Shown here piece by piece: positions 889 to 37,670 of a stretch of DNA of 64,000 nt. The notes beneath the pieces are model-generated. The model saw only the letters and a program-made list of their open reading frames with translations. It made no database searches and had not been told where the DNA came from. This stretch comes from a virus, in the IMG/VR virus record IMGVR_UViG_3300008416_000001; one strand, 5' to 3'. Position 1 is the stretch's first letter. Each line of letters opens with the position of its first letter. Made by a program: the position numbers and the translations under genes.

Positions 889-917
889 TTGACATCACCA
901 CGCATCACTGATAGGCT
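889..917 (+). promoter_or_regulatory. sigma70-type promoter TTGACA-17-TAGGCT
   Basis: Perfect -35 at 889-894, 17-bp spacer, -10 TAGGCT at 912-917, in an intergenic gap. Confidence 0.65.
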
Positions 918-984
918 GTAAGCGTTCTCTTGGCGGGAACAAGTTTTTAACTTGTAGGTTATGCGGAACTAAAATTTAACGAAG

Positions 985-1038
985 AAGCCCCGCACTAAGT
1001 AGCCTCGTAAGTCCCGCCAAGGATTTGCGGGGCTTTTT
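985..1038 (+). terminator. Large-loop intrinsic terminator/attenuator in a 5' leader
   Basis: AAGCCCCGCA (985-994) pairs with TGCGGGGCTT (1026-1035), whose end runs into a T-tract; the loop carries a 10-nt complement to 929-938. Confidence 0.6.
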
Positions 1039-1053
1039 CCATTGGAGGTTGGC

Positions 1054-1251
1054 ATGATTAAGAATCACGAAAAGGATTACAAAGAGAACGCATGGAATGA
1101 ATACACGATGCAAGAGCTTGGTCAGTGGGTTCATTTGCTCTCAACGAGGGCTCAACACAGAGCGAACGGCGATAAAAGAGTAAAAGACCTATATGACGCT
1201 CAGAACTATCTGGACATGATGCAGCAAAGGTTGACCGAGTTGAAGACATGA
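1054..1251 (+). CDS. Hypothetical protein (65 aa)
   Basis: GGAGG at 1044-1048 points to ATG 1054 (MIKNHEKDY...), shorter than the track ORF. Confidence 0.7.
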   Translation: MIKNHEKDYKENAWNEYTMQELGQWVHLLSTRAQHRANGDKRVKDLYDAQNYLDMMQQRLTELKT

Positions 1252-4600: not shown

Positions 4601-4788
4601 ACGCCTTCACAAAAGAACTCCGAGACAAAGGCTGGACGCTAAAAGCCTTTGCTGAATTTCTCGGCCAACCATTGCGGAACATCTCACGCATAGCCAAGAA
4701 CCCAAAGCCTATACACTGGCTGGCAATCCGCGAAGGTTTACCAGTAAAGCACCGCACATCTAACCGGGGTGGATGGGGGGAGGTATGA
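4597..4788 (+). CDS. Small HTH (Cro/XRE-like) DNA-binding protein
   Basis: LRDKGWTLKAFAEFLGQPLRNISRIAK pattern. Confidence 0.6.
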   Translation: MNAFTKELRDKGWTLKAFAEFLGQPLRNISRIAKNPKPIHWLAIREGLPVKHRTSNRGGWGEV

Positions 4789-5012
4789 GCGAATGGATTA
4801 GCGTTGAGGAAGATTCACCGAGGCCGATGCACTTCGTTGATGTTTATTTAAAATCGACAAAGAACTCAACGTATGGTGTAAGAATGACAGATGTCTTGTA
4901 TACAGGGGAGAAATTTAATCACAGAGATGCCTTCGACTTGTTTTTGTGGCATACTGGATGCCCCTACCCTCACCACCAAAGGAGTGATTATGTCTCACAA
5001 GGCGATGATTAA
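4785..5012 (+). CDS. DUF551-like protein
   Basis: MSEWISVEEDSP N-terminus; GGAGG RBS. Confidence 0.55.
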   Translation: MSEWISVEEDSPRPMHFVDVYLKSTKNSTYGVRMTDVLYTGEKFNHRDAFDLFLWHTGCPYPHHQRSDYVSQGDD

Positions 5013-25938: not shown

Positions 25939-26233
25939 CCGATTTAGATTCTACCTTATCTGATTGGCCTAAATATTGTTTGCCAAGCCATATAAGCATT
26001 GTTGCGTTGCCGCCTTCAGCCGCTTTGTATTGCATCCTGCGTAATGAAGATTTACCGCCTGCTGCCTTCTTTTTTATATAGTCCGCACATGCTGTCTTAT
26101 GGACCTCTTTGCATCGGCGCTCTAATGTGTCGTAACTGCATCCCAATACATCGGCTATTTCTTCCCCCGTGCATTGTATCTTGCACAGTTCATCGACTAT
26201 CTCCCAATCAATTTGTATTTTCTTTGCTGCCAT
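25844..26233 (-). CDS. terS: Terminase small subunit
   Basis: HTH CTGEEIADVLGCSYDTL; LRRMQYKAA..GNATMLIWLGKQYLGQ.DK. Confidence 0.8.
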   Translation of the reverse strand: MAAKKIQIDWEIVDELCKIQCTGEEIADVLGCSYDTLERRCKEVHKTACADYIKKKAAGGKSSLRRMQYKAAEGGNATMLIWLGKQYLGQSDKVESKSDVNLTTGSETLREAIESLEDAYTSTEEVLSE

Positions 26234-26332
26234 ATCATATGCTCTTGTCCTGACCCTGAAAACCAGGCTCCGGTTAGGGAACCATAACACGGATGGTGAG
26301 ATTTTTGGATAACTTACGTATTGTGCCATAAA

Positions 26333-26362
26333 AGTATAGCTTATTGTTTGTGGTTGAGTCAA
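26333..26362 (-). promoter_or_regulatory. Late promoter TTGACT-18-TATACT
   Basis: Near-consensus hexamers in the gap upstream of terS. Confidence 0.7.
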
Positions 26363-26716: not shown

Positions 26717-26913
26717 GTGGCCTCCGGTAGCGGGTCTAGCGATTTCCAATGTGTCACATGCCCATATGTTTCATTAAACTTTTTAGAATCAAACAATAAA
26801 ACCTCTTGATAACGAACTGGTCCTTCAGTTCCCGTAGCCTGATACTGTGCAACGACAAGAACAAAAAGTCTCCCTTCGGGCAATCTATCTTTAACGCTAA
26901 TCCATTCGCTCAT
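26713..26913 (-). CDS. DUF551-like protein
   Basis: MSEWISVKDRLPE...VTHWK.L..LP signature. Confidence 0.75.
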   Translation of the reverse strand: MSEWISVKDRLPEGRLFVLVVAQYQATGTEGPVRYQEVLLFDSKKFNETYGHVTHWKSLDPLPEAT

Positions 26914-31464: not shown

Positions 31465-32148
31465 TTAGCCATTATCAATTTCCTTAATTGCTTGCATTAT
31501 TGCAGCGGCTACTTTGGGGTCAATTGAATTGCCTAGAGATTTAAGTCTGTGTGTCCTATTGGGTAGTTCATCAGATACTCGAACAACTCTGGAGAAATCC
31601 TCTGCTCCCCTATAATCGTTTTGTAATTCCTGCAGCTCTTCCACTTTTGCATCGATGGCGCTTTGAAGTTTGCCATCGTTGTAGGTGTGTGCAATAACCC
31701 ACCAGCGATTCCTCTGATGGTCATACCCAAGCTGAGAAGAACCAATACACTGTATAAACGCATTGTATCCGAGTGCTTCCAATTCTCTCTTAACGCCTTC
31801 AACAGCTTTTCTTTGGACATTTTCGCCAATGACATATCGAGGCATGACATTTCGTATAATTCTGACAAAATCAGAAGAAAGGCATGGTGCATTGTTTCTG
31901 CCTCTTGCCGCTGTACTATGTGCTTGGCAGGGATATCCACCAGTGACGATGTATACATGTGCGATGTCGCTTCCATCAAGTTGGGTAATGTCATAGTATA
32001 ACTCCGATTCTGGCCAATGCTTCATAAGAATTTTTTGTGGGAACTCTTCTATCTCGCAAAAGATATGCTCAACATTCTCTTTCCCCCACACCCAATCAGC
32101 CGCTAGCGAAAAGCCTCCTATGCCACTGAATAAATCAAGATGTTTCAT
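31465..32148 (-). CDS. DNA (cytosine-5) methyltransferase
   Basis: Motif I DLFSGIGG; IV GGYPCQ; VI ENV; VIII Q.RNRW; X LGNSI. Confidence 0.92.
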   Translation of the reverse strand: MKHLDLFSGIGGFSLAADWVWGKENVEHIFCEIEEFPQKILMKHWPESELYYDITQLDGSDIAHVYIVTGGYPCQAHSTAARGRNNAPCLSSDFVRIIRNVMPRYVIGENVQRKAVEGVKRELEALGYNAFIQCIGSSQLGYDHQRNRWWVIAHTYNDGKLQSAIDAKVEELQELQNDYRGAEDFSRVVRVSDELPNRTHRLKSLGNSIDPKVAAAIMQAIKEIDNG

Positions 32149-32166
32149 AATCCACCAAAAGAAAAA

Positions 32167-32229
32167 GCTGCTTAGGAGATTGACCCTGCTATGGAGCGTG
32201 TGAAAACTCCGGTCAATCACCTAAACAGC
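32167..32229 (-). promoter_or_regulatory. Long leader hairpin/attenuator upstream of the methyltransferase-replication operon
   Basis: 19-nt arms 32167-32185 and 32211-32229 (2 mismatches), inner GGAG/CTCC hairpin, followed by a U-rich tract on the minus strand. Confidence 0.55.
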
Positions 32230-32231
32230 CT

Positions 32232-32321
32232 ATTGTAAATCTTCACACTTTGTTGCCCAAGCGGATAGCAGTCCGTTTTTCTTGAACGTCTTCATATTAT
32301 CACATTTCATATCTTTGTCAA
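32232..32321 (-). promoter_or_regulatory. Tandem promoters: TTGACA-16-(TG)TAATAT (32294-32321) and TTGGGC-17-TACAAT (32232-32260)
   Basis: Hexamer matches in the intergenic gap. Confidence 0.5.
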
Positions 32322-33639: not shown

Positions 33640-33667
33640 ATCTTATCAAGTGGCAAGCTAAAGTCAA
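33640..33667 (-). promoter_or_regulatory. Leftward early promoter TTGACT-16-(TG)TAAGAT
   Basis: Hexamer and extended -10 match at the strand switch. Confidence 0.65.
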
Positions 33668-33709
33668 TAAAAAAAGTTAACCCGAACAAAATAAAAAGTG
33701 AAAATAAAG

Positions 33710-33738
33710 TTGACAGGCATGTGGGGCCGTGTTATCTT
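33710..33738 (+). promoter_or_regulatory. Rightward early promoter TTGACA-17-(TG)TATCTT with an A-rich UP element
   Basis: Near-consensus hexamers; A-tracts at 33668-33708. Confidence 0.75.
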
Positions 33739-33776
33739 TTAATCACATTGAGGCACCAACCAACAAGGATAACATC

Positions 33777-33953: not shown

Positions 33954-33989
33954 GAAATGAACAGACCAGTTAAAACAAAAGGAGTCACG

Positions 33990-34187
33990 ATGCAAGTATT
34001 CACTGTTGATATGATCCAGGAACTTATTGATGCCCTCGGATGGACGCAGAAAGAAGTCTGCGCCTATGTAGGATGCTCCGAGCAATCAATGACGAGATGG
34101 CTGAAGGGACGAAACACAAACAAACTTCGGCCTGTTCATCGTTCTAAGTTCATCGAGTTACGCAACCAACTCAAGGGGGAGTCATGA
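33990..34187 (+). CDS. XRE/Cro-like HTH regulator
   Basis: IQELIDALGWTQKEVCAYVGCSEQSMTRWLKG; AAGGAG RBS. Confidence 0.8.
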   Translation: MQVFTVDMIQELIDALGWTQKEVCAYVGCSEQSMTRWLKGRNTNKLRPVHRSKFIELRNQLKGES

Positions 34188-36547: not shown

Positions 36548-37670
36548 TTCCTGTCGTTGCCAACCAAACCCAAGACTCCACTGGCGCTACAGGATGTTTG
36601 CCTCAAAACGAGTATGACATCCATTGCCATGCTATTCCTGGCCCCGAGTACAAATTGAATTATCTCGCCTCTTCTTGCAATATCCGTATTGAAGACAAGA
36701 CATGCACAGAGTACGAGTGCAAGCGATATGCCGGCGAGAGGAAAGTCAGCAAGTCTAAGATAACGCCACGCAAAAGACCAAAAGGTAAGGTTAAGCGGAC
36801 ATGTGTCGGCTGTGGCGAGTTAAGCTTTATCAAGGGGCGTGGTCTGTGTGGTAAGTGCTACAAAAGAAACGAGTACCGCGGCACCTTGGATAATTACAAG
36901 ACAGCCCAGGAGATTCACGAATTGCGGTATCAAGAAGACTCACACGATCACCGACGAGAAAGGCCGTACCGCTGAAATCTCAGACGGGTTGCATTCAGAG
37001 CTTTTTTAACAACTACGGAGGAAATTATGAAAGACTGGATCTACATTTTGTTTGGCGTCGCTATGATGGTTGGCTCTTTCGGTGGATGGATAACCCATAT
37101 CTTCGCATGCTTATCAACTGAGGCATGGGGGTTTCTGATCGCTGGTGCCTTGTTTTTCCCAATCGGCATTATTCATGGAATTGGCATCTGGTTCGGGGCT
37201 TGGTGATTATTTATTTGACATCACCACGCATCACTGATAGGCTGTAAGCGTTCTCTTGGCGGGAACAAGTTTTTAACTTGTAGGTTATGCGGAACTAAAA
37301 TTTAACGAAGAAGCCCCGCACTAAGTAGCCTCGTAAGTCCCGCCAAGGATTTGCGGGGCTTTTTCCATTGGAGGTTGGCATGATTAAGAATCACGAAAAG
37401 GATTACAAAGAGAACGCATGGAATGAATACACGATGCAAGAGCTTGGTCAGTGGGTTCATTTGCTCTCAACGAGGGCTCAACACAGAGCGAACGGCGATA
37501 AAAGAGTAAAAGACCTATATGACGCTCAGAACTATCTGGACATGATGCAGCAAAGGTTGACCGAGTTGAAGACATGAAGGACTTGGTTGCTTGTTCGGGC
37601 GAGTGTGGTAGAAGACGACAACTCCCCAAGGGTTGGATTTGCGACGAGTGCAAAAAGAAAAAGGATCGTA

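Follow-up and report, generated by a model that had tools for sequence, protein, structure and literature searches.

The 64,000-nucleotide stretch of viral DNA in IMG/VR record IMGVR_UViG_3300008416_000001 (hereafter the window) contains, at positions 889 to 1053 of its plus strand, a leader that places a promoter and an intrinsic terminator directly ahead of an operon encoding, among others, a protein labeled TGT-like. The main finding is a match between the tip of this terminator and the 5' end of the same RNA, which survives complete sequence turnover in relatives. An earlier reading of the letters alone (the original prediction) had taken the segment for a switch-like leader RNA with a promoter, a terminator just before the ribosome-binding site and a pairing between the terminator loop and the 5' end. 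When the sequence was read directly, every one of these features was found in place. As the pairing is kept in relatives, we consider it very probable, judging from sequence and predicted structure, that they make up a genuine structured leader under selection, whose terminator works. Our best explanation, a promoter-proximal attenuator that acts in cis and is so far uncatalogued as a kind, for which we use the name kissing-loop terminator leader, has in our estimate a probability of roughly 0.5. The switch-like attenuator of the original prediction is retained in this reading, whereas its suggestions of a riboswitch and of membership in the C4/CI family of phage RNAs were abandoned.

The leader at 889-1053 and its counterparts

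The promoter of the leader, P1L (889-917, plus strand), has a −35 box TTGACA (889-894) and a −10 box TAGGCT (912-917), separated by a 17-nucleotide (nt) spacer that ends in TGA (909-911), a TGn motif which makes this an extended −10 promoter. Transcription is expected to start at about 923-925 and to give a leader of about 115 nt. The predicted RNA has a hairpin at its 5' end, H1 (924-940), with a 6-base-pair (bp) stem (924-929/935-940), the loop UUGGC (930-934), a folding free energy (dG) of −6.3 and a z-score of −2.3 against shuffled sequences. It is followed by the A/U-rich hairpin H2, ACAAGTT/AACTTGT (939-955, 7 bp), which overlaps H1 by 2 nt, and by a linker with an optional helix P3 (956-1005), in which 956-966 pairs with 990-1005 and UGCGG (962-966) with CCGCA (989-993). 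The terminator can be drawn in two ways that use the same 3' arm with two alternative 5' partners. Terminator T (985-1035), the stem of the original prediction, has 10 Watson-Crick pairs (985-994/1026-1035) around a 31-nt interior and can be extended by GAAGAA/UUUUUC. The compact terminator T' (1001-1034) has 14 pairs (1001-1014/1021-1034), three of them G-U, and the apical loop CGCCAA (1015-1020), with a dG of −22.5 and a z-score of −5.2 against shuffled sequences; because of its G-U pairs, T' exists in plus-strand RNA only. A U-run (1034-1038, read directly) follows, and 8 nt separate the end of the terminator from the Shine-Dalgarno (SD) sequence which, with the start codon of an open reading frame (ORF) of 65 amino acids (aa), occupies 1044-1056 (GGAGG 1044-1048, ATG 1054-1056). 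The long-range pairing, P1, joins 929-938 (CTTGGCGGGA) to 1012-1021 (TCCCGCCAAG). It comprises a match between the H1 loop and the T' apical loop (UUGGCG/CGCCAA) that can be extended into both stems to 10 bp. Since the 5' segment sits in a hairpin of its own, P1 is best described as a loop-loop contact with this capacity for extension.

Relatives were found through the 198-aa protein encoded by the operon, and the closest fetched copies lie on the metagenome contigs L016 (80% identical) and L001 (66%). On both contigs a promoter, a 5' element, a terminator and an SD sequence stand at the head of the same operon, and unrelated sequences still pair. Indeed, BLAST comparison of the window leader (leader 1) with L001 and L016 gave a single match, namely the last 29 nt (U-run and SD) in L001. 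The L001 promoter lies at the same position (TTGACT-17-TATTCT), its RNA is predicted to start at about GCGAGAGUCGGG, and the leader is devoid of H2 and P3. Its terminator is a 12-bp stem around a small inner hairpin with the apical loop CUCGCA, followed by a U-run and then UUGGAGGUUGGAAUG. The inner 5' arm and the loop together make up the segment CCCUGACUCUCGC, which can pair with the 5' end through 9+3 bp interrupted by one bulge: the 5' strand GCGAGAGUC-GGG pairs with CCC-U-GACUCUCGC, spanning this apical loop. In L016, a promoter at the same position (TTGACA-17-TGgTAGTTT) precedes a 5' hairpin (CGCGUU-UAGUGG-AACGUG) and a long terminator hairpin with the 6-nt apical loop CCACUA, which is the exact complement of the 5' loop UAGUGG; a U-run and GGAGG come next. 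The first gene of the operon differs between these relatives, being the 65-aa ORF in the window, a 41-aa Zn-ribbon ORF in L001 and an HNH-like ORF in L016, and the leader therefore belongs to the operon and not to the 65-aa gene. With respect to the covariation that the original prediction had proposed as a check, the relatives keep the pairing with other letters, in a comparison of three genomes.

A second leader of the same design (leader 2, 32146-32321, minus strand) heads a methylase/helicase/primase operon in the same genome. Its promoter consists of TTGACA (32321-32316), a 16-nt spacer and TGaTAATAT (−10 box at 32299-32294). The bipartite hairpin H1 (32287-32255) has the loop CUGCUA (32271-32266), and the terminator hairpin (32231-32165; dG about −35.8, z-score −6.6) contains a 3' internal loop AUAGCAG (32192-32186) that is complementary to the H1 loop and that is the sole sizeable unpaired patch of this hairpin besides its tip. 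The leader ends in a U-run, the SD sequence GGUGG and the ATG (32148-32146) of an ORF which we take to be C5-methyltransferase-like from an FSGIGG motif recognised by eye. Genes for a helicase and a primase follow downstream of this ORF; because they lie behind the very strong leader 2 terminator, with no other recognisable promoter between, read-through past this terminator must occur unless a promoter that escaped recognition lies in between. A homologue of leader 2 (84% identical) is present at positions 136-300 of L001, where it heads a radical-SAM gene. When the two were aligned, the terminator stem showed five compensatory double changes (A-U>G-C, G-C>U-A, G-C>A-U, A-U>C-G and C-G>U-A), while the kissing partners of 6-7 nt are invariant and predicted to be unpaired. 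The pairing thus measures 10 bp in leader 1, 9+3 bp and 6 bp in its L001 and L016 counterparts, and 7 bp in the two versions of leader 2 (window and L001). Ahead of the operon of leader 1, each of the three phages has a pairing unrelated to the others, and the two leaders of the window genome likewise differ in theirs. It should be noted here that both window leaders have CUUGG at or just after the first hairpin (32287-32255 and 924-940: UCUCUUGGCGGG, UCCGCUUGGGC), which may be chance or a shared recognition element. A further leader, behind a late promoter at about 26,200-26,335 on the minus strand, was considered and found not to be of the kissing-loop terminator design.

To see how often such pairings arise by chance, we collected 186 terminator-like hairpins with interiors of 8-60 nt from both strands of 241 sequences (the window genome and 240 fetched loci, about 1.4 Mb). 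A complement of at least 10 nt between the hairpin interior and the 110 nt upstream was found for leader 1 and its L001 counterpart only, and in the whole window genome the 10-mer is present at its two leader sites only. For the geometry of leader 1, the expected number of such 10-mers is about 1e-3. The pairing is more than chance, as the original prediction had held. The promoter type is also over-represented: TTGAC[AT]-N16/17(TGn)-TAnnnT matches four sites in the 36.3-kb genome against about 0.1 expected (approximately 40-fold). These sites (+889, +33710, −33667 and −32321) are all intergenic and face genes; the two without leaders form a divergent early pair. Beyond the two contigs, no equivalent leader was seen upstream of more distant TGT-like genes (50-59% identical), BLAST searches of both leaders against 50,697 phage records returned nothing beyond a small membrane-protein gene, and exact-pattern scans of IMG/VR, run with both complementary 10-mers and with the conserved 3'-terminal stretches of leaders 1 and 2, gave no matches.

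Predicted folding and possible modes of action

Nested folding gave nearly balanced energies for the conformers with P1 and with the terminator, namely −36.6 and −38.9 kcal/mol for the window and −23.6 and −26.3 kcal/mol for L001. In stepwise folding, P1 is the minimum-energy fold once its 3' strand has emerged (3' end at 1021-1031; 1702-1716 in L001), and the terminator fold overtakes it, by 2-3 kcal/mol, only with the entire 3' arm out. Within the P1 conformer, P3 masks part of the 5' arm of terminator T. The original prediction had left it undecided whether the two crossed helices form a pseudoknot or are mutually exclusive, and the answer depends on the terminator considered. P1 excludes T', because a 12-nt loop cannot hold a 10-bp duplex. 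It is compatible with the 985-994/1026-1035 stem as a pseudoknot, and this combination is the most stable one in a rough estimate (about −44 for the window and about −36 for L001) that uses stacking energies and a pseudoknot penalty of 9.6 kcal/mol.

These computations suggest a way in which the leader might work. Host sigma-70 RNA polymerase would start at about 924 and make H1 first. The intrinsic terminator, 8 nt before the SD of the delayed-early operon, would stop both the transcripts from P1L and those arriving from an immediate-early promoter at 33710. The 3' strand of P1 would leave the polymerase ahead of the 3' arm of the terminator, and P1 would therefore form first, removing the fast-folding T' and leaving the 3' arm with a slow long-range closure onto 985-994, with the pseudoknot as the end state. 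Intrinsic termination depends on quick hairpin closure. Since a pre-formed P1 would offer slow closure in place of a fast hairpin, the contact should lower termination and blocking the contact should restore it. In L001, P1 would destroy the nucleating inner hairpin, whereas in L016 and leader 2 the contact would tether the terminator tip to the 5' domain. In this manner leader 1 could set or switch the flow into its operon, be it by constitutive tuning, through a factor that operates the switch or by titration with free leader RNA, and leader 2, with its own private pairing, could do likewise for the methylase/replication operon. That the pairing acts on termination in cis at all we regard as an even bet; that the sign of its effect is anti-termination is a tentative proposal, to which we lean somewhat less.

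A bolder version, which we consider unlikely, is an RNA gate without any protein that sorts transcripts by their start site and by their own copy number, and that would constitute a new class of timing or dosage device in phages. Only RNAs from the leader's own promoter would carry the complementary segment at a free 5' end, and such a free end would be required for winding completely into the terminator tip and overcoming the terminator. Free leader RNA, rising with genome copy number, would then compete in trans and re-impose termination, each operon having its private pairing 'address'.

Several observations weigh against cis attenuation by kissing loops. The 6-nt loop-loop match of L016 is weak when taken alone, and the comparison of relatives rests on three genomes. 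In a second, stricter screen for loop-to-loop matches, with reversed or merely complemented loops as controls, the control loops gave a match of at least 7 nt in about 1% of hairpins, which speaks in favor of the kissing contact, and of at least 6 nt in about 5%, the latter being the background for L016. Among the 785 distinct terminator-like hairpins of the loci, real complements were no commoner than these controls. In the other 238 loci kissing-type leaders were not enriched over controls, all convincing hits being the five leaders described above, and the design is confined to this phage clade in these data. Moreover, the pairing of L001, L016 and leader 2 does not overlap the base of the terminator. 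Pairing and terminator can therefore coexist there, and by the rough estimate the pseudoknot is the ground state. The structure thus requires no switch, and the pairing might leave termination unaffected or even promote it. Lastly, this analysis identified no factor that modulates the pairing.

The same facts can be read as a factor-dependent antitermination unit of the lambda PR'-6S RNA-tR' type, in which the terminator is efficient irrespective of the pairing, an unrecognised early protein lets the polymerase through, and the pairing only compacts the short RNA or the 5' end of the mRNA and protects it from RNases. We judge this to be improbable, although it remains the best of the alternatives. 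The order of promoter and then terminator is kept in all five leaders, in four of the five the kissing contact or pseudoknot is compatible with a fully formed terminator, and in four of the five H1 or the P1 strand lies within a few nt of the predicted 5' end, as would befit a 5'-end protector. Such protection would, however, need only the 5' hairpin and not a conserved match to the terminator tip, and the two leaders of one phage differ in their H1 loops, which argues against a shared protein-binding site. As for the factor itself, none of about 35 proteins scanned (Pfam, PHROGs) belongs to the Q, N or another antiterminator family, yet many of the small early proteins are without a family or a known function. 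A −10-like pause element of the form TAnnnT was not seen by eye in 918-940 or at the start of leader 2.

Alternatively, the roughly 115-nt RNA released at the terminator could be a trans-acting regulator in the manner of P4 CI or P1 C4, using its terminator tip or H1 loop to pair with nascent leaders or host RNAs and causing an immunity-like or copy-dependent shut-off. A strong promoter followed by a terminator should indeed yield an abundant short RNA, every leader is paired in a way of its own, and leader 2, like the P4 leader, stands before replication genes. The loops are complementary to a site in their own transcript, as are seqA and seqB of P4 (PMC4825925), and short RNAs from phage PR'-tR' units can become regulators, StxS being an example (PMC7547250). 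Nevertheless, both loops are occupied in cis in the finished RNA, and the candidates for a second target stay at chance level. The 7-mer CTTGGCG at 2042, which had been noted earlier, is one of five plus-strand copies, and outside the leader sites the plus strand of the genome has a single complement to the tip region of at least 8 nt, which is 9 nt long and lies inside ninB. A place in the P1 C4/P4 CI family was rejected on the same grounds, with the further observations that no C4 covariance model matched and that ARAGORN found no tRNA or tmRNA gene. All in all, a trans-acting role appears quite doubtful to us.

A riboswitch for preQ1, preQ0 or another ligand, controlling the TGT-like operon, had been entertained in the original prediction and now seems highly implausible. 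In its favor are the gene for a TIM-barrel/TGT-like protein downstream, the fact that a three-way junction closed by P1 is the minimum-energy fold and the near-equal energies of the P1 and terminator conformers. However, the Rfam comparison that had been proposed with C4 and preQ1 motifs in mind gave no match at E≤10 when 600-1400 was searched with cmscan. Over the whole genome all families stayed below their gathering scores, and nothing was found at E≤5 on L001 and L016. The leaders share almost no primary sequence, L001 dispenses with H2 and P3, and the same design stands before the methylase/helicase operon in the window and a radical-SAM gene in L001. As the three leaders have no conserved core and the design precedes unrelated operons, a ligand pocket is unlikely. 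A leader-peptide attenuator was also rejected: the His and Thr leaders scored 22.6 against 49 bits and 17.9 against 55 bits, aligned mainly over the terminator, and the sole leader ORF (AUG-CGG-AAC-UAA, 961-972, with AGG 2 nt upstream) does not make a plausible leader peptide. Finally, a DNA-level inverted repeat with two protein half-sites and no role for RNA can be virtually dismissed: 929-938 and 1012-1021 do form a perfect inverted repeat with centers 83 bp apart (about eight helical turns), but in L001 the repeats are about 45 bp apart and not in phase, the partners in L016 and leader 2 measure 6-7 nt and lie exactly in the predicted RNA loops, and the G-U pairs in the stems of T' and leader 2 mark them as strand-specific RNA structures.

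The operon and its genomic context

The operon behind leader 1 starts with the 65-aa ORF (1054-1251, plus strand) and continues with genes for the 41-aa Zn-ribbon protein, the 198-aa TIM-barrel/TGT-like protein (1345-1941), NinB, an HTH_39 protein and a RusA-like resolvase; the names NinB and RusA-like are our presumed assignments, read from the ORFs. The 198-aa protein has no Pfam family, falls into a PHROG of unknown function, and found no TGT in a sequence-profile search of the PDB. Its confident structure model (predicted local distance difference test, pLDDT, 90.5) is a TIM barrel, for which a fold search returned TGTs with template-modelling (TM) scores of 0.5-0.57 among many other barrels. 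The name TGT-like given in the original prediction is therefore appropriate at the level of the modeled fold and not as a statement of identity, TGT being one of many weak matches, and as a label it remains plausible. The protein has thousands of relatives, found in prophages of many phyla; those nearest to it (P0001-P0007) are 67-89% identical, and the nearest in IMG/VR 56%. The closest genome matches are metagenome-assembled genomes of Desulfuromonadales and Geobacterales (57-59%), which can be taken as a weak hint at the host. Directly 3' of this gene is a hairpin, GTTGGAG...CTCCAAC (1948-1976), that has a U-run after its stem on the minus strand only and thus resembles a terminator for antisense transcription; it belongs to a structured gap (1948-2110) listed in the original prediction.

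Every ORF of the window is repeated at +36,326, which means that the 64 kb represent one 36.3-kb phage genome in about 1.76 copies. The record is accordingly circular, terminally redundant or concatenated. With this repeat period of 36,326 bp, leader 1 is written a second time at 37215-37379 (plus strand). The genome has no close relative among the 50,697 deposited phages. Genes on the plus strand extend from about 33.7 kb through the junction to about 5.7 kb and include those for an HTH regulator, a Rad52-like protein, the 198-aa TIM-barrel protein, NinB and the RusA-like resolvase. Those on the minus strand run from about 33.6 kb down to 5.7 kb, with small early proteins first, then the C5-methylase-like ORF, a DnaB-like helicase, a primase zinc ribbon, an HNH nuclease and a Lar-like protein, and after these the terminase and structural genes. 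Between the two arms (33640-33740) lies the divergent promoter pair, −33667 (TTGACT-16-TGaTAAGAT) and +33710 (TTGACA-17-TGtTATCTT), both with short, plain 5' untranslated regions; the pair is probably the immediate-early switch region. A gene for a Cro-like HTH protein lies at 33957-34187. Elsewhere, a 26-nt inverted repeat (92%) at 4785-4810 and 26888-26913 marks two ORFs on opposite strands that have a common N-terminus MSEWISV...; by eye they resemble DUF551, and probably they are paralogues.

Comparison with known systems

Accounts of the timing of phage gene expression usually invoke proteins, for example repressors, Q and N, or sigma factors. In the present phage two delayed-early operons, one of them with replication genes, each appear to be gated by a strong promoter and a terminator. 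If the contact between the terminator tip and the 5' end controls termination, this would be a compact, programmable RNA device in which any 'address' of 6-10 nt works. The kissing-loop terminator leader is absent from Rfam, and it would bear on the annotation of phage early regions, on the prediction of delayed genes and on the design of synthetic attenuators.

Like pseudoknot riboswitches of the preQ1-I, ZTP and fluoride types, the leader has a long-range pairing across or next to an intrinsic terminator, with the co-transcriptional order of folding as the deciding factor. Unlike these, it has no conserved ligand pocket and no Rfam match, and its sequence can change freely provided that the pairing persists. 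A different design was noted at about 2765-2840 of L166, a Paenibacillus chitinolyticus prophage, and of L081, a matching IMG/VR contig, where the inner loop of a terminator (UUUUCCUCCGAAA) is complementary to the SD region (UUUCGGAGGAA) right after the U-run, which amounts to an anti-SD inside the terminator.

Attenuators of the pT181 type likewise oppose a 5' segment to a terminator just before the ribosome-binding site. In the rep leaders of pT181, pIP501 and pAMbeta1 a 5' preemptor competes with the terminator, and loop-loop kissing starts the contact. Their kissing partner, however, is a countertranscript from the opposite strand, whereas here both partners reside in the same sense RNA, and a consensus scan found no minus-strand promoter for a countertranscript between 238 and 3260. 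In addition, the 5' segment overlaps the terminator arm in the window only.

The resemblance to P4 CI and P1 C4 lies in an untranslated, promoter-proximal leader segment that is complementary to an upstream site in the same transcript. Termination in P4 is Rho-dependent, and in the C4 family RNase P processes a precursor to an RNA of about 77-79 nt. The terminator of the window leader, by contrast, is intrinsic and itself contains the complementary segment, and the window differs from the P4 and C4 systems also in that the C4 model gave no match, that a second target of the seqC or a2/b2 kind was not found downstream, and that ARAGORN detected no tRNA or tmRNA gene. In the P4 leader, pairing controls premature termination ahead of the replication genes (PMC4825925).

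The likeness to the lambdoid PR'-6S-tR' unit extends to a strong constitutive promoter, an intrinsic terminator within about 100-200 nt and a position before an operon, with a short RNA as the default product and genes that need read-through. In Stx phages, the short RNA from PR'-tR' is processed into the regulator StxS (PMC7547250). The present units differ in heading delayed-early operons (DNA modification/recombination and replication) instead of late genes, and in that neither a Q-family protein nor a pause element was recognised in this genome. Complementarity between the 5' hairpin and the terminator tip is, to our knowledge, not a described feature of 6S RNA. By analogy, the leader unit seems to work most like a lambdoid PR'-6S RNA-tR' cassette, with further resemblance to the P4 CI/seqA leader and to pT181-type attenuators, while being a member of none of these groups.

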